Shown here: piece after piece, positions 1,652 to 59,987 of the stretch | Layout of the letters: the number at the start of each line of letters is the position of its first letter | Position numbering within the stretch: position 1 is the first letter of the stretch | Assembly: GCA_042577545.1 (NCBI GenBank) | Contig: JBHPDT010000001.1 | Location: 15,453 to 79,452, forward strand | Origin: Candidatus Omnitrophota bacterium | Lineage (GTDB): Bacteria; Omnitrophota; Gorgyraeia; JABMRG01 | DNA length: 64,000 bases | Reading direction: 5' to 3' | Position numbers and translations under genes: made by a program | Notes under the pieces: model-generated | Told to the model about the DNA's origin: nothing | The model's input: the letters and a program-made list of their open reading frames with translations, nothing else | Databases searched by the model: none

Positions 1652-1727
1652 CCGGTTATCGGTTATCGGTTTTAGGTTTTCGCTTACATGTTACCGAAAA
1701 CCGTAAACCGCAAACCGAACACCGAAC
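1652..1727. repeat. Heptad-periodic palindromic element, CGGTTNN word
   Basis: Left arm ccggttatcggttatcggttttaggttttcg (1652-1682), right arm cgaaaaccgtaaaccgcaaaccgaacaccga (1695-1725). 24/31 complementary by hand alignment. Mismatches occur as dinucleotides about once per unit. Confidence 0.9.
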
Positions 1728-1749
1728 GTATATAATACGGGAGATAAAA

Positions 1750-2433
1750 ATGTGCAATATATTTTTAACTATATTATGGATACTTTTAGCAATAGCGGTT
1801 ATCAAAATTATCCTTATTAGGATTATCTTTAAAAGAGAGATAAAGGCCATATTTGACAGAGATCCGGCAGCGCGCAACTCTATAGAGGTTATAGTTACAT
1901 ATGCCGGCCTGCATGCTCTCATAGCGCATAGGGTGGCAAATACGCTCCTGAGGTTAAAGGTGCCGCTGTTTCCACGATTGATCTCTCAGATAGCGCGCCA
2001 TTTTACAGGTATCGAGATACATCCCGGGGCTACTATAGGAAATGATTTTTTTATAGATCATGGCATGGGTGTTGTTATCGGTGAGACAACAATAATAGGC
2101 GATAATGTAACGCTCTTTCAAGGTGTGACCCTTGGTGGAACTGGTAAAGAGCAGGGAAAACGTCACCCCACCATAGGTAAAAATGTCGTTGTTGGTACAG
2201 GGGCAAAGATATTAGGCAATATTATAATAGGCGATAACTCATATGTTGGGGCAAATGCTGTTGTAATAAGGGATGTTCCACCTAATTCAACTGTTGTAGG
2301 TGTTCCTGGCCGCATTACTAAGCAGGATGGAAAGCGGATGGACGCCAGCTTTGATCATAAGAGGATCTTCGATCCTATTACCCAGGCGATCGAAGCCCTG
2401 CAGAAGAGAATCGAAGAGCTGGAGAAGAAGTAA
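1750..2433 (+). CDS. cysE: Serine O-acetyltransferase (short Bacillus-type) with hydrophobic N-terminal extension
   Basis: [34 protein letters not shown] and hexapeptide-repeat beta-helix. RBS gggag 8 nt upstream of the ATG. The first ~25 aa ([25 protein letters not shown]) are TM-like. Confidence 0.85.
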
Positions 2434-2455
2434 AAATCAACCTGATAAATTGGAA

Positions 2456-2593
2456 GTTACATGAAGTTGAGTCTTGATGTTGCATGATGTTGCATGAGGT
2501 TATAGGATGTTACATAAGGTTACCGTAACCTAATGTAACCTCAATTAACCTTATGTAACCTCATGTAACATGTTCAAATAACATCATGCAAAC
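2456..2593. repeat. 138-bp imperfect palindrome with 10-nt periodic arms (GTTRCATNAN / NTNATGYAAC)
   Basis: Left arm gttgcatgat gttgcatgag gttataggat gttacataag gttac. Centre c at 2524. Right arm gtaacctaat gtaacctcaa ttaaccttat gtaacctcat gtaac.. Roughly 70% arm complementarity by eye. Confidence 0.85.
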
Positions 2594-2630
2594 CCCAGCC
2601 TTTTAGAAGGTTAAAATAACCAGGCTTACT

Positions 2631-5642: not shown

Positions 5643-5645
5643 CAG

Positions 5646-5675
5646 CGTATTGCGTATATCGTATTGCGTATTGCG
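5646..5675 (+). repeat. Direct 7-nt array CGTATTG x4 (one variant unit)
   Basis: cgtattg cgtatat cgtattg cgtattg cgcc immediately after the holB stop. No convincing complementary arm found nearby. Confidence 0.8.
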
Positions 5676-5737: not shown

Positions 5738-5806
5738 TGTCATTCCCGCATAAGCGGGAATCCAGACATGTCGAGTATAGATCCCCGCTTTCGCGGGGAT
5801 GACATG
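5738..5806. repeat. Twin GC-rich mini-hairpins enclosed by a short closing stem
   Basis: attcccgc-ataa-gcgggaat (5742-5761) and atccccgc-tttc-gcggggat (5781-5800), bracketed by tgtcat (5738-5743) / atgaca (5799-5804). Confidence 0.85.
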
Positions 5807-5891
5807 AGAAATAGATTTTTGTTATAGTTGCAATTATTCCATGATACAGGTTGAATGAGAGATTAAATATATAAGAAAGTGGTGAGAGATT

Positions 5892-6710
5892 ATGCATAAA
5901 GTCGTTGAGGTAAAACAGAGAGAAGAAGGCAAGGTAGTACATTATCTTGTTGGTGATCTAAAGCCTACAGCTGGGGATTATGTGATTATCGAGTCTGATC
6001 GCGGCCTGGACTATGGGCAGGTGGTCTCTGCTGAAGAGATACTGCTTGATTCGAAGATGCTTCAGAATCCGATGCGCAAGATTGTGCGTATAGCGAATAA
6101 ACACGATATGGATAATGTAAACCGCAATAAACAGAAAGCGGAAGAGGTTATAAAGACCTGCAATAGGAAGATATCCGAGCATAAGCTTAATATGAAGCTT
6201 ATCGATGCTGAGCTCTCCTTTGATTGCAGCAAGATAATATTTTATTTTACCGCCGAGGAGCGTATAGATTTTAGGGAACTGGTAAAAGATCTTGCCAAAA
6301 TATTTAAGGCTCGAATAGAATTAAAACAGGTTGGCGTAAGAGATGAAGCGAGAATGTTTGGTGGTTTTGGACAATGTGGAAAAGAGCTTTGCTGCGCCAC
6401 ATTTTTAAAAGATTTTGAGCCTGTTACAATAAAGATGGCAAAGGATCAGAATTTGCCGTTAAATCCTACAAAGATCTCAGGTGTTTGTGGGCGCCTGATG
6501 TGCTGCCTCTCATATGAGCATAAGCATTATAAAGAGCGCGCTAAAGGACTACCGAGAGCAGGACAGAAGATTAAGACCCAGGAAGGGCAGGGCAAGGTAG
6601 TGGATGTTAATTATCTTAAGCGAATTGCCACTGTTGAGCTTGAGGATGGCAGACACCTGAAGATAGATTTTTGTAAAACATGTAAGACTGATAAAAATGC
6701 GAAGCACTAA
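5892..6710 (+). CDS. ricT: PSP1 C-terminal domain protein (RicT/YaaT-like)
   Basis: Cys-rich signature CGKELCCATFL..GVCGRLMCCLSYE. Position after tmk-holB as in Bacillus yaaT. Confidence 0.8.
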   Translation: MHKVVEVKQREEGKVVHYLVGDLKPTAGDYVIIESDRGLDYGQVVSAEEILLDSKMLQNPMRKIVRIANKHDMDNVNRNKQKAEEVIKTCNRKISEHKLNMKLIDAELSFDCSKIIFYFTAEERIDFRELVKDLAKIFKARIELKQVGVRDEARMFGGFGQCGKELCCATFLKDFEPVTIKMAKDQNLPLNPTKISGVCGRLMCCLSYEHKHYKERAKGLPRAGQKIKTQEGQGKVVDVNYLKRIATVELEDGRHLKIDFCKTCKTDKNAKH

Positions 6711-6836
6711 ATTCGAAATCCTAAATTCTAAACAATATCTAAATCCGAAATTCAAATGCTCCAAACCTGAGTTTTGTATTTTGGTAATTAGAGAATTAGG
6801 ATTTGTTTAGCATTTAGATATTAGGATTTAGAATTT
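6709..6836. repeat. Heptad-periodic palindromic element, AAATYCT word
   Basis: aaattcg aaatcct aaattct aaacaat.. on the left. Outer 16 nt (6709-6724) pair 15/16 with ttaggatttagaattt (6821-6836). Followed by RBS aaaggag of metG. Confidence 0.85.
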
Positions 6837-6860
6837 ATTGTTAAAGGAGCTGGTTGGCTG

Positions 6861-8393
6861 ATGGACAAGAAGGCATTCTATATAACAACCCCATTATATT
6901 ATGTGAATGCTAAGCCTCATATAGGCCATGCGTATACTCAGGTTGCGTGCGATTGCATCTCAAGATATAAGCGCATGAAGGATGAGGACGTCTTCTTTTT
7001 GACTGGAACAGATGAGCACGGGCAAAAGGTTCAGCGATCTGCGGAGAATGAAGGTAAGGAGACCTTAGAGTTTATAGATTCAGTTGTGGTAAAATTCAAG
7101 GATCTCTGGTCAAAGCTTGATATATCTCATGATGATTTTATCCGCACTACTGAAAAACGCCATGTTGATACAGTAAGCAAGGTCTTATCTGTATTATATG
7201 AAAAAGGGGATATATATCAGGATGAGTACACGGGCTTTTATTGTACTCCGTGTGAGAGTTTCTGGTCAGAATCCCAGGCAAAAGATAGATTATGTCCAGA
7301 TTGTCAGCGCAAGACGGAGCAGATATCTGAGACAAACTATTTCTTTAGAACATCGAAGTACCAGGGGTGGCTTATAAACTATATAAATGAACACCCTGAT
7401 TTTATAAGACCTAAGATTAGGAGGAATGAGGTCTTAGGCTGCCTGCAGGAGACACTTAACGATCTTTGTATATCAAGACCTAGGGAGCGATTGACATGGG
7501 GCATTGATCTGCCTTTTGCAAAAGATCATGTAACTTATGTATGGTTTGACGCGTTAATTAATTATATAAGCGCTTGCGGTTGGGCGCATGATGACAAAAA
7601 ATTTAAAAAGCTTTGGCCAGCCAATTTTCACATAATTGGAAAAGATATATTAAGACATCACGGTATATTTTGGCCGATCATGCTGCATGCCTTGGGCATA
7701 GATCTGCCCCAGACTGTTTTTGCGCATGGTTGGTGGATGATCCATGGGGAGAAGATCTCCAAGTCAAAGGGGAATATCGTCGATCCGTTTGATGTTATAG
7801 ATATCTTTGGCCAGAATGGTTTTAGGTATTTTCTGCTGCGTGAAGTCACATTTGGTCTTGATGGCACCTTTAGTGAAGAGGCGCTTACTACGAGGTTTAA
7901 TGGAGACCTTGCTAATGATCTTGGGAATCTATTAAATCGTACGCTTACCATGGTGGAGAAGTATTTTGATGGTATAGTGCCTGATGCGGGTGAGGCAAGT
8001 GAGGATGATAAGAAGCTGGATGAAGCATTGATGAGCATATTGCCGAAGATCGATACATTTATTCCCAAACTTAATTTTAATCAGGCGCTTATCTCTATCT
8101 GGGAGGTTATAAATATAGCGAATAAGCATATAGAGGTATCAGCTCCTTGGACATTATCGAAGGAAGGTAAGACAGAGAGATTGAAGTCTGTTATATATAT
8201 ATTGTTAAAGGTTCTAAGCTACTGCGCTTTCTTCGTGTATCCTTTTATGCCTGATGCTGCTATGGAGATCTCAAGACAACTTGGTATGGACCTTAATGAG
8301 AAAGAACTAAGGTTTAACCAGCTTGACGGTGAAGTGCTTAAGCCAGGTACTCGTATCAATAAAGGCAATCCAATCTTTCCGAGAATAATGTGA
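6861..8393 (+). CDS. metG: Methionyl-tRNA synthetase (no C-terminal tRNA-binding appendage)
   Basis: HIGH (PHIGHAYT), KMSKS variant (GEKISKSKGN), zinc knuckles CTPC..CPDC. Confidence 0.95.
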   Translation: MDKKAFYITTPLYYVNAKPHIGHAYTQVACDCISRYKRMKDEDVFFLTGTDEHGQKVQRSAENEGKETLEFIDSVVVKFKDLWSKLDISHDDFIRTTEKRHVDTVSKVLSVLYEKGDIYQDEYTGFYCTPCESFWSESQAKDRLCPDCQRKTEQISETNYFFRTSKYQGWLINYINEHPDFIRPKIRRNEVLGCLQETLNDLCISRPRERLTWGIDLPFAKDHVTYVWFDALINYISACGWAHDDKKFKKLWPANFHIIGKDILRHHGIFWPIMLHALGIDLPQTVFAHGWWMIHGEKISKSKGNIVDPFDVIDIFGQNGFRYFLLREVTFGLDGTFSEEALTTRFNGDLANDLGNLLNRTLTMVEKYFDGIVPDAGEASEDDKKLDEALMSILPKIDTFIPKLNFNQALISIWEVINIANKHIEVSAPWTLSKEGKTERLKSVIYILLKVLSYCAFFVYPFMPDAAMEISRQLGMDLNEKELRFNQLDGEVLKPGTRINKGNPIFPRIM

Positions 8394-8416: not shown

Positions 8417-8564
8417 GTAACCAGTTGCCAGTTGCCAGAAACCAGATAGCGATAAATTATTTCCTTTTTTGACGAATAATCAGCCATTTGATTAAAATAA
8501 AATAATCTCTTATTGTCCTGGCATCTGGTCATCTTCTGGTTACTGGTTACTGGTTTCTGGTTAC
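8417..8564. repeat. Heptad-periodic palindromic element, CTGGTNN word, with long AT-rich loop
   Basis: Left arm gtaaccagt tgccagt tgccaga aaccaga (8417-8446), right arm ..ctggtta ctggtta ctggttt ctggttac (8517-8564). Outer 8 nt are perfectly complementary. The loop holds ttccttttttgac, the reverse complement of gtcaaaaaaggaa seen at 22815-22827 and 22868-22880. Confidence 0.9.
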
Positions 8565-8591
8565 TAACTTAAAGTATCTACTGGTGTTAAT

Positions 8592-9818
8592 ATGGCAACC
8601 AACAAGACCCCCATATATTTAGATTATAACGCTACAACTCCACTCCACCCCGATGTCTTCAGAGCCATGGAGCCTTTTTTTAAGGACAAATATGGCAATG
8701 CCTCAAGCCAACATCGCAAGGGGAGGGAGGCAGAAGCTGCTCTTGAGGATTCTCGGGCAATAATAGGCAATGCTCTAGGCACTGAATCAGTTGATATTGT
8801 CTTTACATCCGGAGGCACTGAAAGCGATAACCTTGCTATAAAAGGTCTCTGTCTACGCAATAAAAGAGAAGGCGCGCACATTATAACCTCAACCATAGAA
8901 CACCCCGCTGTGCTAGAGACCTGTAAGTTTCTTGAGAAAGAGCTTGGATTTAATGTTACATATATTGGTGTTAATGAGCATGGCCTGATCAACCCTGCTA
9001 ATGTAGAGAATGCATTAACAGATAAGACTATACTCGTTACGATAATACACGCGAATAATGAGATCGGTACCATCCAGCCGATAAAAGAGATCTCCCAAAT
9101 TATCAGAGAATATAATAGTGCCTGCTGTTCGATCACCGCAAACCGCAAACCGCAAACCGCAAACAGGGTTCTCTTTCACACAGATGCTGTGCAATCATTC
9201 GGAAAGGTTTCGATAGATGTGCGGGAGCTTGGGGTCGATCTTCTTTCGATCTCAGGTCATAAGATATATGGCCCAAAGGGAGTCGGGGCCTTGTATATAA
9301 GAAAGGGCATTGAAATTATCCCCCATACTCATGGCGGGCACCATGAGAGAGGATTGCGGGCTGGAACAGATAATGTTCCTGGCATCGTTGGTCTTGGAAG
9401 AGCTGTTGAGATATTGAATAAGAACTATCATAGCAGGGAGCGCATAAGAGGTTTAAGAGACAGGCTAGAAAGATCTTTGCTAGAGGAGATTAGTGACAGC
9501 AGATTAAACGGAGATATAGAGACGAGGCTTTTTAATACATCTAATATAGGATTTAAAGGATTAGAAGGAGAGGCCCTGCTAATTAATCTAGATATGGAAG
9601 GTATCTACATATCAACCGGTTCCGCGTGTACATCACGCAGCATTACCCAATCTCATGTGCTTGAGGCTATGGGTGTTGATGAGGATTATATTAAAGGTTC
9701 AGTTAGGTTCTCTCTTGGTGAATCTAATACAGATAAAGATATAGATTATTGTGTTAGAAAGATACCCCCTCTCATAAAGCATCTTCGCAAGGCTTCAAAA
9801 ACCAGTTCGGACAAGTGA
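8592..9818 (+). CDS. nifS: Cysteine desulfurase (NifS/IscS class V aminotransferase)
   Basis: PLP-lysine motif SGHKIYGPKG, catalytic Cys loop STGSACTS, HTDAVQSFGK. Carries a repeat-encoded insertion (ITANRKPQTANR). Confidence 0.9.
   Translation: MATNKTPIYLDYNATTPLHPDVFRAMEPFFKDKYGNASSQHRKGREAEAALEDSRAIIGNALGTESVDIVFTSGGTESDNLAIKGLCLRNKREGAHIITSTIEHPAVLETCKFLEKELGFNVTYIGVNEHGLINPANVENALTDKTILVTIIHANNEIGTIQPIKEISQIIREYNSACCSITANRKPQTANRVLFHTDAVQSFGKVSIDVRELGVDLLSISGHKIYGPKGVGALYIRKGIEIIPHTHGGHHERGLRAGTDNVPGIVGLGRAVEILNKNYHSRERIRGLRDRLERSLLEEISDSRLNGDIETRLFNTSNIGFKGLEGEALLINLDMEGIYISTGSACTSRSITQSHVLEAMGVDEDYIKGSVRFSLGESNTDKDIDYCVRKIPPLIKHLRKASKTSSDK
9135..9162 (+). repeat. Intragenic heptanucleotide microsatellite (ACCGCAA x4) inside nifS
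   Basis: accgcaa accgcaa accgcaa accgcaa, four perfect copies read in frame as TANRKPQTAN. Same word as the right arms of the CGGTT elements. No left arm nearby. Confidence 0.9.
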
Positions 9819-9822
9819 TCTT

Positions 9823-10632
9823 ATGCTGATTGAGACACACGCTCACCTGGATTTTCCTGAATATAATAATGATCTCGATGATGTTATAAAGAGATCGAAG
9901 GAAGCTGGTGTAGAATATATTATCAATGTAGGCGCAAACATGGAAGGATCTTTGGCATCTGTTGAACTTAGTCGCAAGTATGATATGATCTTTGCCAGTT
10001 GCGGCATTCATCCTCATGATGCCTCAACTGTAAATAAGCAGAATATAGAAAAAATAAAGGATCTAGTAGGTGAATCTAAGAAGGTAGTTGCCATAGGGGA
10101 GATCGGCCTTGATTTTTATAGAAATCTTTCACCAAGAGATAAACAACTAGAGGTCTTTGAAGAATTTGTTCTATTGTCAAAAGAATGCGACCTTCCGTTA
10201 ATACTCCATTGCAGAGAAGAAGGGCCGAGCAAAAATGAGGCTTCAGAGTTAATATTTAAGATATTGGACAATAATCTTAAGAGACCCTTTAAGGCTGTAA
10301 TGCACTGTTTCTCTCAGAATGAAGATGTATTAAGAAAGTGCCTGGATCGGGGAATGCATATCTCTTTTACCTGTAATATTACTTATCCAAAGGCTGAGGA
10401 TTTAAGAGAGGTTTTAAAGTCCGTACCTTTAGATAGGCTCTTACTTGAGACTGATTCGCCCTTTCTATCGCCTCAAGTTCACAGGGGTAAGAGGAACGAG
10501 CCAGCATATTTGAGATATCTGGTAGATGAGATTGCGAGCGTCCTAAATATGCAAGCCTCAGAGATAGAGCGAATAACCACAGAAAACGCCAAGAAATTCT
10601 TTTGGGGACGTGCACAAAGGGGACAGGCTTGA
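9823..10632 (+). CDS. tatD: TatD-family metal-dependent hydrolase
   Basis: N-terminal IETHAHLDF, internal GEIGLDF, C-terminal LETDSPFL motifs. The last 10 codons plus stop lie in repeat arm 10603-10634. Confidence 0.85.
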   Translation: MLIETHAHLDFPEYNNDLDDVIKRSKEAGVEYIINVGANMEGSLASVELSRKYDMIFASCGIHPHDASTVNKQNIEKIKDLVGESKKVVAIGEIGLDFYRNLSPRDKQLEVFEEFVLLSKECDLPLILHCREEGPSKNEASELIFKILDNNLKRPFKAVMHCFSQNEDVLRKCLDRGMHISFTCNITYPKAEDLREVLKSVPLDRLLLETDSPFLSPQVHRGKRNEPAYLRYLVDEIASVLNMQASEIERITTENAKKFFWGRAQRGQA

Positions 10633-14236: not shown

Positions 14237-14894
14237 GAGATTCAGCATAGCATTGCTTGAGAACGATCTCTTAATAGATGAGATCGAATCGGGGGCTAAT
14301 AATAGTCACTCCTCCCAGCTCATCCCCGAGATCGATAAGATGCTATTGAAAAACTTACGCGGCATAAAGGATATCGATCTGTTTTGTGTCGGATTAGGAC
14401 CAGGTTCTTTTACCGGCTTACGGATAGGCCTTACTATTATGAGGGGTTTTGCGCTCTCTCTGAAGAGACCCATTATTGGTATACCCAGCATTGATAGCTT
14501 GGCATTTAATGTCTTGGGTCACCAAGGCCTTATCTGTCCAATAATAGACGCAAAACAGCATAAGGTCTACGCGAGATTTTATGAGTGCAAAGATCAGGAA
14601 GTAAGGTCTAAGGGCAAGATTCTTCTTACTCCTATCGCGGATTTACTGAAAAGCATAAAGAGGAATGTAATATTCCTGGGTGATGGATTATCTATATATA
14701 AAGATGATATAATAAGTAAAAAGTCTAGCCTGGCAGTATTTGCGCCAGAGACGACATGGTATCCAAAGGCGGCAATAATAGGACGATTGGGCGTAGATAG
14801 ATTTAGATCTGGCGGCAAGGATAATGTTTTTAATCTCACACCACTCTATATTTATCCGAAGGAATGCCAGGTGGCTACGCGGAAACAAAGGTAA
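14193..14894 (+). CDS. tsaB: tRNA t6A37 protein TsaB
   Basis: ASKHA-fold N-terminus ILTLSVDTSS, GPGSFTGLRIG. Overlaps tsaE by 44 nt. Confidence 0.8.
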   Translation: MAKDILTLSVDTSSKRFSIALLENDLLIDEIESGANNSHSSQLIPEIDKMLLKNLRGIKDIDLFCVGLGPGSFTGLRIGLTIMRGFALSLKRPIIGIPSIDSLAFNVLGHQGLICPIIDAKQHKVYARFYECKDQEVRSKGKILLTPIADLLKSIKRNVIFLGDGLSIYKDDIISKKSSLAVFAPETTWYPKAAIIGRLGVDRFRSGGKDNVFNLTPLYIYPKECQVATRKQR

Positions 14895-15012
14895 ATTAAA
14901 AAATCAAAAGTAAAAATGCAAAATTACAGTTCAAAATTCAAAAATTGAAACCACAAAAAAATTTTAAATTTTTAATTTCATTTTTTAATTTTTATTTTTT
15001 CATTTTTAATTA
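14894..15012. repeat. Heptad-periodic palindromic element, A/T-only word
   Basis: Left aaattaa aaaatca aaagtaa aaatgca aaattac.., right ..ttttaaa tttttaa tttcatt ttttaat ttttatt. The outer aattaaaaa / tttttaatt pair. Confidence 0.75.
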
Positions 15013-16148: not shown

Positions 16149-16173
16149 GAGTTGGGAGCAGGGAGTTAGGAGT

Positions 16174-16240
16174 AAATGGGGACGGTTCTGGTTTTTATTC
16201 GCGGTAACAGCGAAAAACCAGAACCGTCCCCATTTTATTC
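16174..16240 (+). terminator. Long perfect hairpin after alr, probable intrinsic terminator
   Basis: aaatggggacggttctggttttt (16174-16196) pairs perfectly with aaaaaccagaaccgtccccattt (16213-16235), with a 16-nt loop. Followed by the T-rich ttattcttt. Confidence 0.7.
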
Positions 16241-16308: not shown

Positions 16309-16347
16309 ATTACTATCAAATAAAAGTTTACTTTTTGCAAAATAGAA

Positions 16348-16387
16348 GAATTCGTGAGATTTTACGAGAATTCGTGAGATTTTACGA
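16348..16387 (+). promoter_or_regulatory. Perfect tandem 20-mer (x2), candidate operator/activator site upstream of the pilus operon promoter
   Basis: gaattcgtgagattttacga repeated twice without a gap. Each unit contains tcgt-N8-acga dyad symmetry. It ends 32 bp upstream of the -35 box at 16420. Confidence 0.6.
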
Positions 16388-16419
16388 GTTTTTTGTTTAA
16401 AAATGGTATAAATACAACC

Positions 16420-16541: not shown

Positions 16542-16730
16542 ATGAAAGCCGATAGATATTATTCTGCCAAGGAGGTTGCTAGGCTCTTGAGTATCTCTAA
16601 ACAGACATTGGTCAGGTATGAGTCTAAGGGTATATTTCCAAAGGCACGACGGAATAATGTAAATAGCTGGCGTGAGTATACGATAAGTGACGTAAACCAT
16701 CTTAGAAAAATTATGGGAAGATCAGCCTGA
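16542..16730 (+). CDS. Small MerR/excisionase-type helix-turn-helix protein
   Basis: 62 aa. HTH YSAKEVARLLSISKQTLVRYESKGIFP with no effector domain. RBS aggagg. First gene of the pilus cluster. Confidence 0.6.
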   Translation: MKADRYYSAKEVARLLSISKQTLVRYESKGIFPKARRNNVNSWREYTISDVNHLRKIMGRSA

Positions 16731-16761
16731 TGGCCTACCTTAGCTATCGGGGGAATTTAAT

Positions 16762-22673: not shown

Positions 22674-22687
22674 GGAGTGTACTAGAG

Positions 22688-22925
22688 AAACCAGAAACCT
22701 GTAACCAGTAACCAGGTCAGTCTAACAACATGTTCTTATATATTAGTAAGCAGAAACCTGTAACCAGAAACCAGAAAAAACATCTATATCGCCTGATCTG
22801 GTAATTGGCAACCGGTCAAAAAAGGAATTGGCTTATCATTAATCTGGTAACTGGTTACTGGCAACTGGTCAAAAAAGGAACTAGTTTAACTTTATCTGGT
22901 AACTGGTTACTGGCAACTGGTTACT
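22688..22925. repeat. Composite CTGGTNN-word element: two AACCAG arrays and three direct CTGGT-array units
   Basis: aaaccagaaacctgtaaccagtaaccagg (22688-22716), cagaaacctgtaaccagaaaccag (22751-22774), then three direct units starting atctggtaa at 22796, 22842 and 22894. The first two end in gtcaaaaaaggaa. Confidence 0.85.
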
Positions 22926-24197: not shown

Positions 24198-24226
24198 TTG
24201 ACATAGATCAGTACCAAATGTATAAT
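24198..24226 (+). promoter_or_regulatory. Consensus sigma70 promoter of the pilin gene
   Basis: TTGACA (24198-24203), 17-nt spacer tagatcagtaccaaatg, TATAAT (24221-24226). Strong RBS aaggagg before ATG 24268. Confidence 0.75.
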
Positions 24227-24267
24227 GTGAGAAAAGTTAATAAAGTCGAAAAAAAGGAGGTAGGGGG

Positions 24268-24660: not shown

Positions 24661-24700
24661 CGCTGATAGTTGAGATTTTGTCTTAGAATTTTTTAAAAAA

Positions 24701-24737
24701 AAGGGCATGCTTATCAAAAGCATGCCCTTTTAGTTTT
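24701..24737 (+). terminator. Rho-independent terminator after the pilin gene
   Basis: aagggcatgctt - atca - aagcatgccctt (12-bp perfect stem) followed by ttagttttt. Confidence 0.8.
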
Positions 24738-34649: not shown

Positions 34650-34695
34650 ATTTGATTAGTTTTTTAACAAGTTAATTGTACAAAAGAGCTGATAC

Positions 34696-36000: not shown

Positions 36001-36010
36001 GAGGGGTTTT

Positions 36011-39248: not shown

Positions 39249-39263
39249 GAATCCTAGACTATT

Positions 39264-40529: not shown

Positions 40530-40553
40530 AAAAGATAAGGATCTTATAAGATC

Positions 40554-42515
40554 ATGTGTGGTATCGCGGGTATATACAATAATTCAAAGACAGTAAATCC
40601 TCTCCATATAAAGGAGATGACAGATAAGATGCGTCATAGAGGGCCGGATGACGAAGGTTTTCTTGCCTTGAATGTAAAGACAAAGGAGTTTGATAGTCTA
40701 ATAGGTGGTGATAGCAGAATAGATGGCCAGAGAATCGAAACATACAAAAAGCGGTCGCATCTTTTTTTAGGCCATAGAAGATTAGCGATAATTGATACCT
40801 CATCCATGGGGCATCAGCCTATGAGTAACAAAGATGGGACATTGTGGCTCATCTTTAATGGGGAGATCTATAACTATATAGAGCTGCGGGAAGAGCTGTG
40901 TGGCCTTGGATATAGTTTTAAGTCCAATACTGACGCGGAGGTATTATTGGCGGCATATGAAACCTGGGGCGAGGATTGTCTTAAGCGATTTAATGGAATG
41001 TGGGCTTTTGTGATTTATGATAGAAGGAGAAATATCCTCTTTGGCTCTCGTGATCGTTTTGGCGTAAAGCCTTTATATTATTATATCGATAAGGATTATT
41101 TTATCTTTGCATCAGAGATAAAGGCGTTGTTACTCCCATTTATTAAGAGGGAAGTGAATCCCAGAGCTGTTTTTGACTATCTTGTTTTGGGCTTGGAGGA
41201 GAATGAATCAGAGGGATTTTATAAAAATATACACGAGTTAAAGCCCTCATCTAATTTCATATATGATATCGGTACCCACAAGATTAGTACAGAAAACTAT
41301 TATAGTCTTGAATATACGGATAGATGGGAGACCTTCAGTGAAAGCAAATCATATAAGTATATTGAAGGAATAAGAGAGCTTATCTTTAATGCTGTTAACA
41401 TGCGGCTTAGATCAGATGTCCCAGTAGGGTCATGTCTTAGCGGCGGAATTGATAGTTCATCTATAGTGTGTGTAGTAAATAATATTCTTAAAGAGAGGAG
41501 TTTAGAGCAAGTAGGTAAAGAGCAGAATGTATTTACCGCTAGCTTTAATGATAGTTTGATTGATGAGAGCAATTGGGCTAAAATTGTAGTAGAAAATACG
41601 AAGACATCCTGGACAAAGACACTGCCCAATGCCAAGGAGTTTATTAAAGACCTTAAAGATCTAATCTATACGCAAGACATTCCATTCGGATCAACAAGCA
41701 TATATGCGCAATATCGTGTGATGAAGATCGCCCGAGAAAAGGGCGTGAAGGTCCTGTTGGATGGACAGGGAGGGGACGAGGTCTTTACAGGATATCTGCC
41801 CTTTCATAGGGCTTTCTTTGAGGAGATGATAAAAAATTTCTCATTACTGCAATCTGTTAAAGAGTTCAGCAATATTCACAAAGGTAAAAAAGATATGCTC
41901 TTATCATTATCCAAGATGTTTATTACTAAATTATTGCCGCTTAATTATTTGAAAGCTGCCTTCAGAGCGCGCAAACAGATGCCTAGGCATTTAAATAATG
42001 ACTTTTGGGCTCTCCATTCTAATAGAATAGAGGAGAAGAGGGGCCATGCAACCACATCTTTAAATAAGATGCTGCATACTTATATGAGTGGACCCTATTT
42101 AAAATCACTCTTACGATATGAAGATAGGAATTCAATGAGGTTTTCTATAGAAGCGAGGACTCCGTTTGCTGATGATATTGATCTTATTGAGTATCTCTTT
42201 TCGATCCCGTCTGTCTATAAGATACATGACGGATGGAGTAAGTTTTTGTTAAGGCAATCTATGGAAGGCATATTGCCTGATGCGATAAAGTACAGGAGAG
42301 ATAAGATAGGATTTGCCACCCCAGAATATAGGTGGCTAAACGAGTCAAAGGATAATATAAGAGATTATATAACAGATGATCTGAATGAATTTATAGATAC
42401 TAAACAGTTACTTAATAATTGGGAAACGCTTATTAAGAGTCAGCCGAGGCAAGGCATTACCCCCATATGGCGTATAATAAATTTAGGTATTTGGAAGAAA
42501 GTATACGAACTTTAA
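40554..42515 (+). CDS. asnB: Asparagine synthase-type glutamine amidotransferase (AsnB/WbpG-like)
   Basis: Ntn nucleophile MCGIAG, PP-loop SCLSGGIDSS, 653 aa. Located in a glycan locus, which suggests sugar amidation rather than Asn synthesis. Confidence 0.8.
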   Translation: MCGIAGIYNNSKTVNPLHIKEMTDKMRHRGPDDEGFLALNVKTKEFDSLIGGDSRIDGQRIETYKKRSHLFLGHRRLAIIDTSSMGHQPMSNKDGTLWLIFNGEIYNYIELREELCGLGYSFKSNTDAEVLLAAYETWGEDCLKRFNGMWAFVIYDRRRNILFGSRDRFGVKPLYYYIDKDYFIFASEIKALLLPFIKREVNPRAVFDYLVLGLEENESEGFYKNIHELKPSSNFIYDIGTHKISTENYYSLEYTDRWETFSESKSYKYIEGIRELIFNAVNMRLRSDVPVGSCLSGGIDSSSIVCVVNNILKERSLEQVGKEQNVFTASFNDSLIDESNWAKIVVENTKTSWTKTLPNAKEFIKDLKDLIYTQDIPFGSTSIYAQYRVMKIAREKGVKVLLDGQGGDEVFTGYLPFHRAFFEEMIKNFSLLQSVKEFSNIHKGKKDMLLSLSKMFITKLLPLNYLKAAFRARKQMPRHLNNDFWALHSNRIEEKRGHATTSLNKMLHTYMSGPYLKSLLRYEDRNSMRFSIEARTPFADDIDLIEYLFSIPSVYKIHDGWSKFLLRQSMEGILPDAIKYRRDKIGFATPEYRWLNESKDNIRDYITDDLNEFIDTKQLLNNWETLIKSQPRQGITPIWRIINLGIWKKVYEL

Positions 42516-44448: not shown

Positions 44449-44635
44449 ATAATTTTAGGATTAAGTCGTAAGGATTAAGAATTAAGAATTTGTTGCTGCG
44501 ATACTTAATACTTAATACTTAATTTTTTATACTAAACAAGGATAATTTTAGGATTAAGTTGTAAGGATTAAGAATTAAGAATTTGTTGCTGCGATACTTA
44601 ATACTTAATCCTTAATCCTTAATACTAAACGAGGA
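44449..44635 (+). repeat. Tandem duplication (2 x ~93 bp) of a CTTAATN-word heptad palindrome including its RBS-like 3' flank
   Basis: Each unit is ataattttaggattaagtYgtaaggattaagaattaagaattt-gttgctgcg-atacttaatacttaat..actaaacRagg. Units start at 44449 and 44542. The second ends at the ilvB RBS. Confidence 0.9.
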
Positions 44636-44642
44636 TAATACC

Positions 44643-46316: not shown

Positions 46317-46412
46317 TTCGGTTTTCGGTTAGCGGTTCTCGGTTTTTCCGCCAAAGGCGGACCCGCCTCCGGCGGGCGTAACTACCGCACACCGTAAACC
46401 GCACACCGAACC
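46317..46412. repeat. CGGTTNN-word palindromic element carrying a GC-rich twin-hairpin core
   Basis: Arms ttcggttttcggttagcggttctcgg / ccgcacaccgtaaaccgcacaccgaacc. Core ccgcc-aaa-ggcgg a cccgcc-tcc-ggcggg (46348-46376). Positions 46333-46401 are 68/69 identical to 51552-51620. Confidence 0.9.
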
Positions 46413-46902: not shown

Positions 46903-46918
46903 CGCGTAATACAAACGT

Positions 46919-47057
46919 CTTCGGTTATCGGTTTGCGGTTAGCGGTTCTCGGAAAAACGTTGGCCGTAAACCGCACACCGAAAACCGTAAACCGAATTTA
47001 TATCGGTTCCCAGAAATGCAGTAGCCGTAAACCGTAAACCGAAAACCGAACACCGAA
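46919..47057. repeat. CGGTTNN-word element with one left arm and two right arms
   Basis: Left cttcggttatcggtttgcggttagcggttctcgg (46919-46952). Right 1 ccgtaaaccgcacaccgaaaaccgtaaaccgaa (46964-46996). Right 2 ccgtaaaccgtaaaccgaaaaccgaacaccgaac (47024-47057). Confidence 0.9.
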
Positions 47058-47078
47058 CTATAGAACAAGGAGCTGCAA

Positions 47079-48081: not shown

Positions 48082-48272
48082 TTCGTATCTCGTTGTTCGT
48101 ATCTTGTATCTCGAAAAAACACTTGAACGAGAAGGAGGCGAGATACGAGATACGAGATACTAGATACGGAAACATGTGAACAAGAAGATAGCTAGATACG
48201 GAAACAGCAGAACAAGAAAAAACAAGTGGAACTAGCTTAAGCGAGATACGAGATACTAGATACGAGATACGA
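48082..48272. repeat. ~190-bp CGTATCT/GAGATAC-word composite element, copy A
   Basis: Left arm ttcgtatctcgttgttcgtatcttgtatctcg (48082-48113). GAGATAC arrays at 48139-48168 and 48241-48272, plus a short one at 48191-48200. Left arm pairs 27/32 with 48241-48272. Modules shared with 54606-54800. Confidence 0.9.
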
Positions 48273-51542: not shown

Positions 51543-51626
51543 TTCGGTTATCGGTTCTCGGTTTTTCCGCCAAAGGCGGACCCGCCTCCGGCGGGCGTAA
51601 CTACCGCGCACCGTAAACCGAACACC
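51543..51626. repeat. CGGTTNN-word element with GC-rich twin-hairpin core, second copy
   Basis: ttcggttatcggttctcggtttttccgccaaaggcggacccgcctccggcgggcgtaactaccgcgcaccgtaaaccgaacacc. Core at 51567-51597. Followed by tagaacaaggagg, the RBS of aroC. Confidence 0.9.
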
Positions 51627-52774: not shown

Positions 52775-52824
52775 TTGTTGTAATATTGTCTGGCAAATAG
52801 CTGTAAAAATATGTATATATCAAA

Positions 52825-52916
52825 GAAACCAGAAACCAGAAACCAGTAACCAGAAACCAGAAGATACCAGATATCAGGAAAAACTAATCTGGAAACTGGC
52901 AACTGGCAACTGGTTA
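52825..52916. repeat. Heptad-periodic palindromic element, CTGGTNN word (asymmetric arms)
   Basis: gaaacca gaaacca gaaacca gtaacca gaaacca gaagata ccagata tcagg, then a loop, then atctgga aactggc aactggc aactggtta. Confidence 0.9.
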
Positions 52917-52955
52917 TTTATCGAATCTTCTTGTTTTTAACAGGAGGAACGGTTC

Positions 52956-54589: not shown

Positions 54590-54605
54590 CGTACGCGTAA
54601 TATAC

Positions 54606-54800
54606 ACGTTTTGTATCTCGTTGTTCGTATCTAGTATTTCAAAAAACAGCTGCACAAGACAAAAATGAGATACAGAAACACCAGAACAAGAAAAAACAAG
54701 CCGAACTAGTTTAAACGAGATACGAGATACTAGATGCGAGATACGAAAACATGTAAACAAGAAGGAAATAAGATACGAGATACTAGATACCAGATACGAA
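54606..54800. repeat. ~195-bp CGTATCT/GAGATAC-word composite element, copy B
   Basis: Shares with copy A the blocks acgttYtgtatctcgttgttcgtatct, gaaacaNcagaacaagaaaaaacaagNNgaactagYtta, cgagatacgagatactagatRcgagatacga and aaacatgtRaacaagaag, in partly different order. Confidence 0.85.
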
Positions 54801-54814
54801 AAAAAGGGGGAAGC

Positions 54815-56661: not shown

Positions 56662-56680
56662 GCCACCTGTTGGAATATGA

Positions 56681-56732
56681 ATCCCGTTAGACTATGTTAC
56701 CATAGATATGTTAGAAAGTAGTCTAACGGGAT
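56681..56732. other. Perfect 14-bp stem-loop downstream of the HEAT genes
   Basis: atcccgttagacta (56681-56694) pairs with tagtctaacgggat (56719-56732) across a 24-nt loop. No T-run follows. Confidence 0.7.
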
Positions 56733-56832
56733 GAACCCCGCCCTTCCTAAGTATTAATACAGGTCGGGGTAGGATATAAGTAAATAAGAAATTTTATTGT
56801 AGATCGTTTGTTTATGTGAAAGGAAGAGCTGG

Positions 56833-58980
56833 GTGAAGAAAAGACTTGTTATAGTGGAATCTCCGGCAAAGTGCAAGACACTTGCTAAGTTTTTAGGTGA
56901 TGAGTATGAGGTTACCTCGTCTATGGGGCATCTTATAGATCTTCCCGCAAGCAGTATGGGCGTAGATGTTGAAGATAACTTTAAGCCGCAATATGTTGTA
57001 ATTCCCACGCGCAAAAAAATGATAGCGGATTTAAAGAAGTTATTCAAGGGTAAATCTGTTATATATTTAGCCACAGATCCGGATCGTGAAGGTGAGGCTA
57101 TAAGTTGGCACCTTGCGCGCGAACTTGTTACAAAGAATCAGAAAAGTTCTAGGGTAGAATTTCATGAGATAACAAGGGAGGCTATTCTCTCCGCGTTTAA
57201 GAATCCTCGAGATATAGACATGGATAAGGTTAATGCTCAACAGGCCAGGCGCATATTGGATAGAATAGTTGGATACAATCTCTCCCCGTTATTATGGGAG
57301 AAGGTTGCCAGGGGCTTGAGCGCAGGACGAGTACAGTCGGTTGTGCTGCGTATAATTGTTGAGAGAGAAGAAGAGATTAAGGCCTTCAAACCACAGGAGT
57401 ACTGGGACATAGAAGCAGAATTGAAAAAAAAGGATAAAGAAGAATCTTGTAAATTTATTGCCAAGCTTGCGCAGATAGAGGGGAAAAAGCCCAAGATCAA
57501 TTCACAGAAAAAGTGCGACGTTCTTCTCGATATATTAAAGACAAAAGATTATATAGTATCAGGCTTAAAGAAACAGAAGAAGACCAGAAAGCCATCCCCG
57601 CCATTTATAACAAGTACGATGCAGCAGGAGGCCTTCAATAAGCTGCGGTTCTCCGCAAGTAGGACTATGAGAGTGGCTCAACAGCTATATGAAGGATTAG
57701 ATCTGGGCGCAGAGGATAGCGCCGGACTTATTACATATATGCGAACAGATTCTACAAAGATATCTCAGGAAGCAAAGAATCAGGCACGAAACTATATAGA
57801 GAACAACTTTGGAAAAAAATATCTGCCAGCTGCGCCCCATGCGGCAAAATCGTCAAAGCAGAAGACTCAAGACGCCCATGAGGCAATAAGACCAACTTCT
57901 ATTAATAGAACCCCTGATAAGATAAAGAAATATCTTAGTCTGGACCAGCTTAAGATCTACACTCTTATCTGGAAGAGATTTGTTCAAAGTCAGATGTCCT
58001 CAGCAATATTTAATATTAAGACAGTAGAGATACACGCTACGCAAATCGCTCAACGAGATAAGAAGTATATATTCCGGCTAGGTGGCAGCAGTATAATCTT
58101 CGATGGTTTCTTAAAGTTAAATGATAATACAGAAGATGGCGCTAAGGATACTGTACCTGAGTTAGAGATAGATGAGAACTTGGATCTTCTTAAGCTAATA
58201 CCTTCCCAACATTTCACCAAACCTCCCCCCAGGTTTTCAGACGCCTCGCTGGTCAAGGAGTTGGAAGAACAGGGCATAGGCCGACCGAGTACATATGCCC
58301 CGATAATTATCACTATCTGTCAGCGTCAATATGTTGATAGAAAGAATGGGTATTTCTATTCGACAGAAGTTGGCACAGAGGTGACAAGGTTGCTGGTGAA
58401 ACATTTTCCAGATATACTTAATGTGAGTTTTACAGCTCAGATGGAGAATGAGCTCGATAAGATTGAGGAAGGTGAGATGGATTGGGTGGCGGTGCTTAAG
58501 GAATTTTATGACCCGTTCTGCAAGGATCTATCTCAGGCAAAGATTAAGATGGAGGATCTTAAGAAGAGGCAGACACCTTCTGATATAAAGTGTGAGCTAT
58601 GCGGCAAGAAGATGATATTCAGATGGTCCAGGCGCGGGACATTCCTGGGGTGTTCAGGATTTCCAAAATGCAAGAACTCTAAACCAGCAAAGAAGAACGA
58701 GGATGGTAAGATAGAGATAGTTGAGCCAGAGACTACAGATAAGGTATGCGATAAATGTAATAAATCTATGATCGTTAAGCGTTATAAGGACGGCAGGTTC
58801 TTAAGTTGCTCTGACTATCCGCAATGCAAGAATACAAAACCTTTTCCAACGGGGGTCAAGTGCACACAAGATCAATGTGATGGTGAGCTTGTTGAAAGGT
58901 ATTCCAGGCACGGTCTCTTCTTTGGATGTTCAAAATATCCTGATTGTAAGTTTACAACTAGAAAGCTGCCAAAAGAATAG
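56833..58980 (+). CDS. topA: DNA topoisomerase I
   Basis: TOPRIM LVIVESPAKCKT, active-site Tyr region LITYMRTDS. Three C-terminal C4 zinc ribbons (CELCGKK..CSGFPKC, CDKCNKS..CSDYPQC, C..C..CSKYPDC). GTG start with RBS aaggaag. Confidence 0.95.
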   Translation: MKKRLVIVESPAKCKTLAKFLGDEYEVTSSMGHLIDLPASSMGVDVEDNFKPQYVVIPTRKKMIADLKKLFKGKSVIYLATDPDREGEAISWHLARELVTKNQKSSRVEFHEITREAILSAFKNPRDIDMDKVNAQQARRILDRIVGYNLSPLLWEKVARGLSAGRVQSVVLRIIVEREEEIKAFKPQEYWDIEAELKKKDKEESCKFIAKLAQIEGKKPKINSQKKCDVLLDILKTKDYIVSGLKKQKKTRKPSPPFITSTMQQEAFNKLRFSASRTMRVAQQLYEGLDLGAEDSAGLITYMRTDSTKISQEAKNQARNYIENNFGKKYLPAAPHAAKSSKQKTQDAHEAIRPTSINRTPDKIKKYLSLDQLKIYTLIWKRFVQSQMSSAIFNIKTVEIHATQIAQRDKKYIFRLGGSSIIFDGFLKLNDNTEDGAKDTVPELEIDENLDLLKLIPSQHFTKPPPRFSDASLVKELEEQGIGRPSTYAPIIITICQRQYVDRKNGYFYSTEVGTEVTRLLVKHFPDILNVSFTAQMENELDKIEEGEMDWVAVLKEFYDPFCKDLSQAKIKMEDLKKRQTPSDIKCELCGKKMIFRWSRRGTFLGCSGFPKCKNSKPAKKNEDGKIEIVEPETTDKVCDKCNKSMIVKRYKDGRFLSCSDYPQCKNTKPFPTGVKCTQDQCDGELVERYSRHGLFFGCSKYPDCKFTTRKLPKE

Positions 58981-59850
58981 ATGCGCAGATACGTAGATAA
59001 ATTTATCAGATATCTTGAGATAGAAAAACAGGCCTCAAAACACACATTAACGAATTACAAGATAGATCTTAAAGCCTTCGAATCTTTTCTTGATAAGAAG
59101 AGAATAGAGGATGTAGACTATCTCTTATTAAGACAGTTTTTAGCCCACCTTAGGCAGAGGAAGCTTTCACGTTCATCAATAGCAAGAAATCTCTCGTGCC
59201 TAAGGAGTTTTTTTAGATTCATGGTTCGTGAGGGTCTGCTGAAATCAAACCCGGTAGCTGGTGTTGCTACCCCTAAGAGAGAAGCAAGATTACCTCATTT
59301 TTTACATGAGGAAGAGATAGCTAAGGTATTCGAAGTCCAGGCCTCAGATACCAGGGGCTTAAGGGATAAGGCTATAATGGAGACCCTATACAGCACTGGG
59401 ATGAGGGTCTCAGAGCTTATCAACCTAAACTCCGATGATTGTGATTTTATAGGTGGGGTAGCTAAGGTCTTGGGTAAAGGTAAAAAAGAGAGATTTACAC
59501 CTATAGGTGAGAAAGCTATTAAGGCTATAAGAGATTATACCAAGGCCTCTAGCGCACAGAGGGAGTCCGGGGTAAAGGCTATATTCTTAAACAATAGAGG
59601 TAAGCGCTTAACTGATAGATCTGTTAGGCGCATTGTGGACCGTTATATAAGTTTAGCGAGTATAAAGGGTAAGGTGTCGCCCCATACTATGCGTCACTCA
59701 TTTGCTACTCATCTGCTTAACAGAGGAGCTGATCTAAGGGCTGTGCAGGAACTCTTAGGGCATGCCAATCTTTCAACAACTCAGATATATACACATGTTA
59801 CTACTGAGCGCATGAAAGATATATATCAGAAGGCTCATCCGCGAGCCTAA
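58981..59850 (+). CDS. xerC: Tyrosine site-specific recombinase XerC/XerD family
   Basis: Catalytic R..HxxR..Y signature (MRVSELINL, HTMRHSFATHLL, GHANLSTTQIYTHV). The start abuts the topA stop. Confidence 0.85.
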   Translation: MRRYVDKFIRYLEIEKQASKHTLTNYKIDLKAFESFLDKKRIEDVDYLLLRQFLAHLRQRKLSRSSIARNLSCLRSFFRFMVREGLLKSNPVAGVATPKREARLPHFLHEEEIAKVFEVQASDTRGLRDKAIMETLYSTGMRVSELINLNSDDCDFIGGVAKVLGKGKKERFTPIGEKAIKAIRDYTKASSAQRESGVKAIFLNNRGKRLTDRSVRRIVDRYISLASIKGKVSPHTMRHSFATHLLNRGADLRAVQELLGHANLSTTQIYTHVTTERMKDIYQKAHPRA

Positions 59851-59987
59851 ATCGGTTATCGGTTATCGGTTTACGGTGTTCGCAAAATACACTAACTGCA
59901 GACTGCGTTTAACGAAAAATTAGGTTCGGTTATCGGTTTTTGGTTTACGGAAATGTATTAGCCGTACACCGTACACCGTAAACCGAT
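59851..59987. repeat. CGGTTNN-word element with two left arms and one right arm
   Basis: atcggttatcggttatcggtttacggtgttcg (59851-59882), ggttcggttatcggtttttggtttacgg (59923-59950), ccgtacaccgtacaccgtaaaccgat (59962-59987). Confidence 0.9.

Follow-up and report, generated by a model that had tools for sequence, protein, structure and literature searches.

In most prokaryotic genomes, no long simple repeats are as abundant as those with heptanucleotide units, and polymerase slippage has been proposed as their origin, as far as later summaries of the survey by Mrazek, Guo and Shah (2007) relate (PMC4679880; PMC4692102). Here we analyse a 64-kb stretch of DNA (hereafter the window) from one Candidatus Omnitrophota metagenome-assembled genome (MAG), in which 17 loci carry arrays of 7-nt units (heptads) built on at least six unrelated sequence words, nearly every array being one half of an imperfect palindrome. 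These heptad palindromes belong to the known but mechanistically unexplained kind of heptanucleotide repeats, of which STRRs have been known since 1990 and which were surveyed in 2007. In the best explanation, they correspond in Omnitrophota to the STRR (short tandemly repeated repetitive) hairpins of cyanobacteria and to repeats such as repetitive extragenic palindromic (REP) sequences and bacterial interspersed mosaic elements (BIMEs), not as purpose-built regulatory RNAs. We put at about 0.5 the probability that they are slippage-built, hairpin-capable dispersed repeat DNA, selfish or neutral and filtered by selection, with any effect at the RNA level secondary.

Relation to described repeats

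The STRR sequences of heterocystous cyanobacteria reportedly go back to Mazel and colleagues in 1990. Hairpins of such 7-bp repeats lie in the hupS-hupL intergenic region and ahead of hoxW, and for these a role in transcript stability or translational coupling was proposed (PMC2670836), and STRR arrays of both orientations have been listed (PMC2408588). Geobacter metallireducens carries an element of 4 x GGACCGG in 49 copies, inside and between genes, as well as arrays of 5 x MTYCTGA that come in pairs, one on each strand (PMC2700814), and the GGGAATC arrays of Xanthomonas include inverted pairs and vary in length among close relatives (PMC4692102). A Nostoc preprint describes promoter-proximal heptamer arrays with regulatory effects, the partner of which was not identified (bioRxiv 10.1101/2022.06.06.494920). 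An original prediction, made from the letters of the window alone, was aware of no family with tandem heptads inside a palindrome; the STRR hairpins (PMC2670836) and the Geobacter (PMC2700814) and Xanthomonas (PMC4692102) repeats had already been published. Open-access text yielded no publication on Omnitrophota repeats or on an inverted-pair pattern that crosses phyla.

With the STRRs, the window elements share tandem 7-nt units, several words per genome, intergenic dispersal and inverted arrays able to form intercistronic hairpins, whereas the host and the words differ, nearly every array is half a palindrome, and composites and in-frame copies within open reading frames (ORFs) occur. Since the host lies outside the heterocystous cyanobacteria, the elements can be placed only in the wider class of heptanucleotide long simple sequence repeats and not under the original STRR definition. 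Features of that class present here are head-to-tail 7-nt arrays, multiple intergenic words and unit numbers that appear to change by slippage. The repeats surveyed by Mrazek, the GGGAATC repeats of Xanthomonas and Nostoc and the TAACTGA repeats of Beggiatoaceae likewise have period 7, lie between genes, differ in length among relatives and include some inverted pairs. Those, however, are mostly direct single-word arrays, often perfect, whereas arrays in the window have 3-5 units, about two degenerate positions per unit and a palindromic partner. The Geobacter elements come close, with 4-5 heptanucleotides per arm, opposite-strand pairs and dozens of copies in and between genes, but each of their classes has a single word, and they were annotated as putative binding sites for regulators or as regulatory RNAs, without comparative or strand tests.

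REP sequences and BIMEs are dispersed imperfect palindromes of transcribed extragenic DNA, often found in operons or after convergent genes and rarely at promoters; they build composite mosaics and can stabilise upstream mRNA. The window elements are dispersed imperfect palindromes in transcribed extragenic DNA as well, but a REP family has one conserved sequence of 20-40 nt with a 5' tetranucleotide, a cognate REP-associated tyrosine transposase (RAYT) and no internal periodicity. Families in the window share words, and sometimes cores or a 5' module, and no common 5' tetranucleotide was identified among their few copies. The arms could also be read as the terminal inverted repeats of a miniature inverted-repeat transposable element (MITE); no target-site duplication was recognisable and the window holds no insertion sequence (IS). 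Rickettsia palindromic elements are palindromes found also in frame in protein genes, at tolerant surface or linker positions. Two copies in the window (60893-60975 and 9135-9164) seem analogous in sitting in frame in conserved proteins without destroying them, although the Rickettsia elements are 100-150 bp long, conserved in sequence, devoid of heptad periodicity and from another lineage. In architecture, tandem repeats within a palindrome are most closely paralleled, with no relationship implied, by the Foldback transposons of Drosophila and similar eukaryotic elements, whose long inverted terminal repeats are built from short tandem repeats; they are eukaryotic and of kilobase scale, have units of 10, 20 or 31 bp and are associated with transposase-encoding copies.

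Periodicity, arm pairing and folding

The heptad palindromes of the window are confirmed as real. Across the 21 internal spacers of at least 46 nt between plus-strand ORFs, with dinucleotide shuffles as the null, identity at a lag of 7 nt was 0.389 against 0.275 +/- 0.007 (z=16.2), the strong intergenic excess over shuffled sequence that the original prediction called for. Its harmonics were raised at lag 14 (z=9.7) and lag 21 (z=5.0), all remaining lags had z<=3, and coding DNA stood at background (lag-7 identity 0.262). Taken singly, 13 of 19 spacers reached a lag-7 z of at least 4.3. Spacer 54590-54814 gains a period-7 array once the start of the next gene is reset from 54734 to a GTG at 54815, and spacer 2434-2630 is a period-10 variant; together these bring the count to about 15 of 21-22, in agreement with the early estimate of heptad inverted repeats in some 15 of 22 spacers. 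Tandem Repeats Finder reported period 7 in 35 of its 72 rows for the window.

The complementarity of the arms, first aligned by hand, held up well. The value of 24/31 for 1652-1682 against 1695-1725 is exact (mismatches at positions 1, 6-7, 14-15 and 22-23), and 15/16 for 6709-6724 against 6821-6836 was reproduced exactly; 27/32 is the true optimum for the element at 48082-48272, for which the arms had been quoted one base out of register. None of 1000 shuffles reached any of the three values. Folding z-scores of the elements as RNA ranged from -2.4 to -9.1 in a per-spacer run and from -3.9 to -5.8 in a second run, in which none of 200 shuffles did as well; the sole poor folder is the A/T-only element (minimum free energy, MFE, z=-0.4). 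Predicted stems consist of helices of 4-8 bp parted by 1x1 to 2x2 internal loops, much as anticipated from an interruption about once per unit. The accompanying idea of five conserved and two variable positions is clear in the pooled CGGTT family, where the information content is 1.2-2.0 bits at positions 1-5 and 0.5-0.6 bits at positions 6-7, and is only weakly held across all arrays (share of variation in two adjacent positions 0.77 against 0.67 for the null, p=0.004). Arms made of tandem arrays can pair in more than one register: the centroid structure of 52820-52920 is empty, and the MFE structure of 46915-47062, which uses the distal arm, has an ensemble frequency of 0.007.

Turnover at orthologous junctions

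The window contains the operon ilvDBNC-leuA, and the presence of an element at all four junctions ilvD|ilvB|ilvN|ilvC|leuA, read at first from the sequence, stands with the gene identities established. In a homolog search, its IlvC was 80% identical to a Candidatus Omnitrophota MAG protein, and the next twenty matches were mostly from Omnitrophota; the WaaA-LpxK protein of the window is listed at NCBI under Candidatus Omnitrophota. For comparison, 208 loci were fetched (numbered with the prefix L), 80 of which, amounting to 1.1 Mb, were anchored on ilvC and chosen without regard to repeats. In L001 (IlvC 80% identical), all four junctions are filled by a single family, TCGCATA/ACGACAT, and five copies have the loop CATGGGATTTTTAAAAG in common. 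In L006, L011 and L002 (IlvC 73-77% identical), the genes at the ilvB|N|C|leuA junctions overlap or lie 1-27 nt apart, without an element. Elements are found again at some ilv junctions of L012, L016, L017, L019 and L021, mostly with words other than those of the window: ilvN|ilvC holds ATCAGC/GCTGAT in L017 and CATGAGT/ACACAAG in L016, and ilvC|leuA holds GTAAGNN/NNCTTAC in L021, whereas L012 carries the window's own word, CGTATCT/AGATACG, at that site. At ilvN|ilvC, the window and L001 have kept the 5' flank (cgcgtaatacaaacgtct and agcggaatataaacgttt, respectively) and the region of the ribosome-binding site (RBS), while the arms read TCGGTTA in one and TCGCATA in the other.

Filled, refilled and empty junctions thus indicate that position and architecture persist or recur and that both arms change their word together. 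Since junctions of the closest relatives lack an element, it must be dispensable for the operon. The early description of one architecture with many words is borne out both by ilvN|ilvC, as compared with L001, and within the window, where the elements at 46903 and 54594 have a 16-nt 5' module in common, followed by CGGTT arms in the first and CGTATCT arms in the second; in both comparisons the word switches while position and flanks stay. The module (GTAATAYAMACGTYT) was absent from all 208 fetched loci.

Slippage and copying

Two paralogs, at 46317 and 51529, are near-identical over about 95 nt, with a common 46-nt core, common flanks on both sides and a 7-nt indel; those at 48078 and 54590 have modules in common and have gained or lost 46-nt blocks. 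Unit numbers at ilvC|leuA differ among the window, L012 and L001. Adjacent identical units were more frequent than in permuted arrays, both in the window (24 against 17.1 +/- 2.5, reached by 3 of 500 permutations) and in metagenome loci (563 against 332 +/- 11, reached by none of 500); in the 80 ilvC loci the difference was not significant (42 against 35.7). Such an excess, together with the 7-nt indels, is what slippage should leave behind. A T-to-C change in L001 runs through the left-arm units of each of the five copies and is absent from the right arms, creating A.C mismatches on the sense strand, from which it follows that homogenisation acts within an arm and that the whole element was copied afterwards.

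Copies inside protein genes

Two copies lie in frame on the plus strand within conserved enzymes, and both had escaped the original prediction. A complete CGGTT palindrome (60893-60975) occupies the interdomain linker of WaaA, to which it adds about 30 residues, in waaA-lpxK. WaaA aligns to the Aquifex enzyme (2xci) up to residue 290 and again from residue 325, leaving 34 residues in place of 4 in the structure, and the insert of about 30 residues is missing from most of 11 aligned Omnitrophota homologs. A perfect ACCGCAA x4.3 array (9135-9164) lies in the cysteine desulfurase gene iscS, where it encodes most of 15 residues that IscS has in excess of 9wep. In both proteins, the two flanks of the insert align to solved homologs in one frame. 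A complete two-armed element within a conserved enzyme is hard to explain except as the insertion of pre-existing repeat DNA. In all frames, stop codons are almost absent from both copies but not from their intergenic relatives; as a heptad array shifts frame with each unit, this is what purifying selection would leave.

The host gene of the first copy is unusual in itself: a single ORF encoding 805 residues (59994-62411) joins waaA, for the Kdo transferase, to lpxK, for tetraacyldisaccharide 4'-kinase, most homologs being separate proteins of about 430 residues. The WaaA linker is an insertion hotspot, with unrelated inserts of 20-40 residues in four of the aligned homologs (P0004, P0039, P0042 and P0058; alignment columns about 318-350), and one of these inserts, in L201 (6900-7010), a locus syntenic with the window and rich in heptads, contains ACGACAT heptads and a GC hairpin.

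Strand symmetry and placement

If a hairpin were selected in the sense transcript, transitions should survive as G-U pairs on the sense strand, and no such preference was seen. The window and L001 elements sum to -900 kcal/mol with 68 G-U pairs in sense and to -1015 kcal/mol with 91 G-U pairs in antisense, and for the CGGTT and L001 families, folding of the antisense strand is 6-25 kcal/mol more favourable. Among 46 co-directional inverted heptad pairs from many contigs, the sense hairpin had the greater stability in 21 cases and the antisense hairpin in 24 (Wilcoxon p=0.55). With both strands folding equally well, nothing marks selection on an mRNA hairpin, and an RNA role is still compatible with the data. 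For 85 inverted pairs, the flanking genes were co-directional in 46 cases, convergent in 15 and divergent in 6. None of 4227 Rfam covariance models matched the window at its gathering score.

Within the window, left arms begin 0-24 nt past the upstream stop codon, two of them overlapping it (the exception, at 52824, begins 50 nt past), and right arms usually end 4-27 nt ahead of the next start codon. Only two perfect 12/12 sigma-70 consensus promoters are found (24198 and 42594), and both of these, like the best intrinsic terminator, a hairpin with U-tract at 24699-24731, are in heptad-free spacers, which places the heptad elements inside transcription units. Intrinsic termination was considered for the palindromes and rejected: the first description of them as mostly lacking a U-tract agrees with the terminator search, which called no whole heptad hairpin and overlapped the elements only in a 5-bp sub-stem inside 1652-1669.

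Distribution across phyla

Since an array threshold of 3.5 units is unfair to short periods, periods were compared in a test of equal stringency. In the 80 ilvC-anchored loci, which come from many phyla, this test found 15 period-7 arrays in 9 loci, against 0, 1, 0, 2, 0, 0 and 0 arrays of periods 5, 6, 8, 9, 10, 11 and 12. Besides Omnitrophota, inverted pairs, with words that differ from locus to locus, are present in a deltaproteobacterium (L039), Endomicrobia (L073) and Nitrospinae (L076); in a Thermoguttaceae locus (L042, Planctomycetota), complementary arrays lie 440 nt apart, beyond the distance used for counting pairs. A reverse-complement partner within 250 bp was found for 62 of 102 arrays, as compared with 11 in a reversed-sequence control. 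Scanning metagenomes for CGGTTNN x4 gave at least 120 contigs with a G+C content of 0.38-0.74, and many of the matches were paired. A very long ATAGCGT-type array with a 35-nt higher-order unit lies at aroC|aroK of L201 (484-900), where it is interrupted by a run of N, a sign that heptad repeats break short-read assemblies.

The wider survey adds the preference for period 7 far outside the taxa of first description, the share of about 60% of arrays in inverted pairs and the lack of a sense-strand bias, which together argue for a process that acts primarily on DNA. With 17 loci in 64 kb, composites, half-elements, ORF insertions and sister genomes with empty, refilled or same-word junctions, the window is an unusually dense natural sample of it. 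Such elements also explain some annotation problems: miscalled gene starts (54734 in place of 54815), unexpected extra segments of conserved proteins, and breaks in assemblies (L201).

Search for a mobilising enzyme

The 39 window ORFs that were scanned include no gene for a transposase, a RAYT or a reverse transcriptase, and tblastn detected no Y1 homolog in the window. In L201, a gene for a 296-residue Y1_Tnp protein (7406-8296) adjoins waaA; its best NCBIfam match is the REP-associated tyrosine transposase, below cut-off (59 against 80 bits). Proteins of 285-300 residues with Y1_Tnp, a C-terminal helix-turn-helix (HTH) domain and the HUH motif NHLHLLL are single-copy and widespread in Omnitrophota (1852 matches at E<=1e-10). 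Their genes (in L201, and at 10001-10890 in L204-L208) are tightly packed among housekeeping, lipopolysaccharide or glycosyltransferase genes and, in these six loci, are preceded or flanked by a conserved AAGGTTGAACCTYAAGTGTAA-type motif and never by heptad arrays, of which the five 20-kb loci hold two in 100 kb, neither flanking the gene. By these sequence features, the Y1-HTH family looks domesticated rather than like an active IS. The original prediction had proposed looking for RAYT or TnpA genes flanked by the heptad words; none was found in the window, nor are the Y1-HTH genes of the six Omnitrophota loci so flanked, and across these places a RAYT link to the heptad elements is not supported.

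Origin of the elements and alternative explanations

If the elements are slippage-built repeat DNA, their arms would arise and change length through replication slippage in 7-nt steps, a process whose signatures are seen here. Complementarity could then be kept as hairpin- or cruciform-capable copies are propagated, or are repaired by intrastrand template switching, and whole or half elements might be copied to new sites, for which homology- or microhomology-driven copying (template switching, gene conversion between arrays) would be favoured over a dedicated transposase. Selection would purge hits on promoters, terminators, RBSs and reading frames, a probable cause of the observed placement, and the survivors would fill stop-to-RBS gaps in operons or sit in frame in tolerant protein linkers. 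Once transcribed, elements would fold as long hairpins with interruptions, which might impede 3' exonucleases or serve as substrates of RNase III, either putative effect being a by-product or at most a later co-option.

Several observations weigh against this account. Several lineages have elements at the same ilv junctions, and the window and L012 share the word CGTATCT at ilvC|leuA, which could reflect retained function instead. Arm complementarity outlasts complete word turnover on what is seemingly one scaffold, and neutral drift alone would not preserve it. The concentration of CGGTT-family variation in two of seven positions suggests a 5-nt word under constraint beyond slippage, and the 7-nt step size itself is left without explanation. 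No target-site duplication was recognised at ORF insertions or junctions, neither an empty-site pair at the DNA level nor a mobilising enzyme was found, so that the copying mechanism is one that we infer, and the window is 64 kb of a single MAG.

The original prediction had read the elements as intercistronic RNA selected for architecture rather than sequence. In such a reading, hairpins with any matching word would act as mRNA stabilisers or as RNase III or RNase E sites that set cistron ratios. The location between stop codon and next RBS in operons, typically ending 4-27 nt before the start codon, the strongly negative folding z-scores and the occupation of the same junctions in several lineages by differing words, with complementarity kept through word turnover, all speak for such a role, and transcript stability or translational coupling was proposed for the STRR hairpins of hupS-hupL (PMC2670836). 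Yet relatives with IlvC 73-77% identical have no spacer at the ilv junctions, complete and half elements lie inside ORFs, single-arm arrays exist, neither strand is favoured (21 against 24 pairs, with antisense better by 6-25 kcal/mol in the CGGTT and L001 families), 15 of 85 pairs lie between convergent and 6 of 85 between divergent genes, and the pairing register is ambiguous (empty centroid; MFE frequency 0.007); we therefore regard this role as unlikely. It is less probable still that the elements are ordinary transcription terminators or attenuators, an idea to which we attach next to no weight: stable hairpins do lie downstream of genes, and composites with one left and two right arms (46919-47057 and 48082-48272) permit alternative, attenuator-like pairings, but a U-tract is lacking and none was called, a canonical hairpin with U-tract is used elsewhere (24699-24731), termination at every ilv junction would abolish expression of the operon, and some copies lie inside ORFs.

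Mobility in trans would account for the dispersal of copies, ORF insertions included. The elements would then be non-autonomous transposable elements, of REP/REPIN or MITE type, with heptad arms recognised by a RAYT or IS200-type Y1 enzyme; a single orientation within each family whose arms can be distinguished (6/6 CGGTT, 3/3 CTGGT, 2/2 CGTATCT) and the RAYT-like Y1_Tnp+HTH gene next to waaA in L201, of a family widespread and single-copy in Omnitrophota, fit this idea. Against it stand the 39 scanned window ORFs without a transposase, the missing target-site duplications, the AAGGTTGAACCTYAAGTGTAA-type motifs in place of heptads around Y1-HTH genes, the RAYT match below cut-off and the many words per genome, which would require many specificities, and we think it improbable. 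The omega repressor binds contiguous heptads, and a ribbon-helix-helix protein of this type (pSM19035), or a nucleoid protein, might read DNA in a 7-nt register, as an S1, cold-shock or CsrA-like protein might read RNA. A period of sharply 7 across phyla and the 5-nt word with two variable positions in the CGGTT family would suit an array of binding sites, and published speculation on such repeats favours binding proteins (PMC4679880; bioRxiv 10.1101/2022.06.06.494920; PMC2700814), the S1, cold-shock or CsrA-like proposal having been made for TAACTGA repeats. At least six unrelated words in 64 kb, however, with other words in every other genome and replacement of the word at orthologous sites, make this very improbable, as does the position of the sites inside operons and not at promoters, with no enrichment of isolated words outside arrays (z<=3.3). 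A bolder idea, which we hold to be a long shot, is that inverted heptamer arrays form a class common to several phyla, kept for their shape by a factor that reads the 7-nt register of helices and internal loops. This factor could be a nuclease, a mobilising enzyme not yet recognised, or a hairpin-binding protein of replication or repair. The scaffold would be conserved while words are free to change, both arms being rewritten together, and the predominance of 7-nt units among the long repeats of prokaryotes would be due to this factor as well.

Anatomy of the individual elements

In the CGGTT family, the palindrome at ispF|hexapeptide transferase gene (1652-1727) has CGGTTNN x5 on the left and NNAACCG x5 on the right and folds with z=-4.9. 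The palindrome at 46317-46412 starts at the ilvB stop codon, has a G+C-rich double-hairpin core (z=-5.1) and is the paralog of that at pilD|aroC (51543-51626), from which it differs by the 7-nt indel in the left arm and with which it has the identical 46-nt core. At ilvN|ilvC, a composite of one left and two right arms with alternative pairings (46919-47057) is preceded by the 5' module CGCGTAATACAAACGT (46903-46918), and at xerC|waaA a composite of two left arms and one right arm (59851-59987) fills the spacer, beginning at the stop codon and ending 7 nt short of the next start codon.

Three elements use ACCAG/CTGGT: a palindrome at metG|iscS (8417-8565, z=-5.1), a composite of two left and three right arms with a 53-bp higher-order repeat between T2SSE-type and T2SSF-type pilus genes (22686-22925), and a palindrome at aroC|aroK (52824-52916) with ambiguous pairing register and empty centroid. 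The CGTATCT/AGATACG composite at ilvC|leuA (48082-48272) has one left and two right arms; L012 has the same word there and L001 a related one. Its paralog, likewise a composite (54594-54800), has the 5' module seen at 46903 and runs into the miscalled start of the next ORF. The mechanical start of that ORF, 54734, falls inside the element, and the true start is likely the GTG at 54815, which follows an AAGGGGG run resembling a Shine-Dalgarno sequence.

Among the remaining words, TAAGNNN/CTTAATN forms a tandem-duplicated palindrome at ilvD|ilvB (44449-44639; 93-bp unit, 93% match, z=-5.8), AAATYCT/AGRATTT a palindrome with 15/16 arm pairing whose left arm overlaps the stop codon at 6710 (6695-6837), and A/T-only heptads a weakly folding palindrome (14893-15011; lag-7 z=4.8, MFE z=-0.4). 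A single-arm array, GCGTATT x4.4 (5645-5675), has no inverted partner and had been missed in the original prediction. The period-10 palindrome (2456-2593) is built on GTTAC/GTAAC, with Tandem Repeats Finder periods of 10 and 20 and an MFE z of -9.1. In L001, a palindrome at 10130-10290 with arms of 9-nt period (GTTACGNNN/NNNCGTAAC-like) has the same GTTAC/GTAAC word; palindromes of periods 9 and 10 with a common word indicate that the architecture is not strictly tied to 7 nt.

Short G+C-rich hairpins, such as ttcccgcataagcgggaa, tccccgctttcgcgggga, ccgccaaaggcgg and cccgcctccggcggg, occur at 5740-5810, 46347-46378, 51566-51597, 16149-16215 and 56680-56790, with longer perfect hairpins at 16160-16215 and 56684-56730. 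Some are nested within heptad elements, and they may constitute a second repeat family.

Genomic setting and further features

The genome has 40% G+C. All 49 retained ORFs of the window lie on the plus strand and GC skew is positive in every 2-kb bin, which points to strong co-orientation of genes with replication. Besides ilvDBNC-leuA, housekeeping genes include ispDF, cysS, metG, iscS, type IV pilus genes, aroE/C/K, dprA, topA, xerC and waaA-lpxK; a nuo-like block spans 26234-42515, and no tRNA or tmRNA gene was found in the window. The TTGACA-N17-TATAAT promoter at 24198 precedes a type IV pilin gene (24198-24660) that matches the Pfam family ComP_DUS (35.8 bits against a cut-off of 27.3). 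This pilin type and dprA prompted consideration of the heptad words as DNA uptake sequences (DUS) or uptake signal sequences (USS), a candidate that was rejected, isolated words outside the elements scoring z=0.5-3.3 against dinucleotide shuffles. The longest heptad-free spacer contains 2.1 copies of AGAATTCGTGAGATTTTACG, a perfect direct repeat of 20 nt (16347-16388), and downstream of this repeat a small ORF (16543-16731) encodes a putative product resembling a MerR/excisionase-type HTH protein (MKADRYYSAKEVARLLSISKQTLVRYE...), as assigned by eye.

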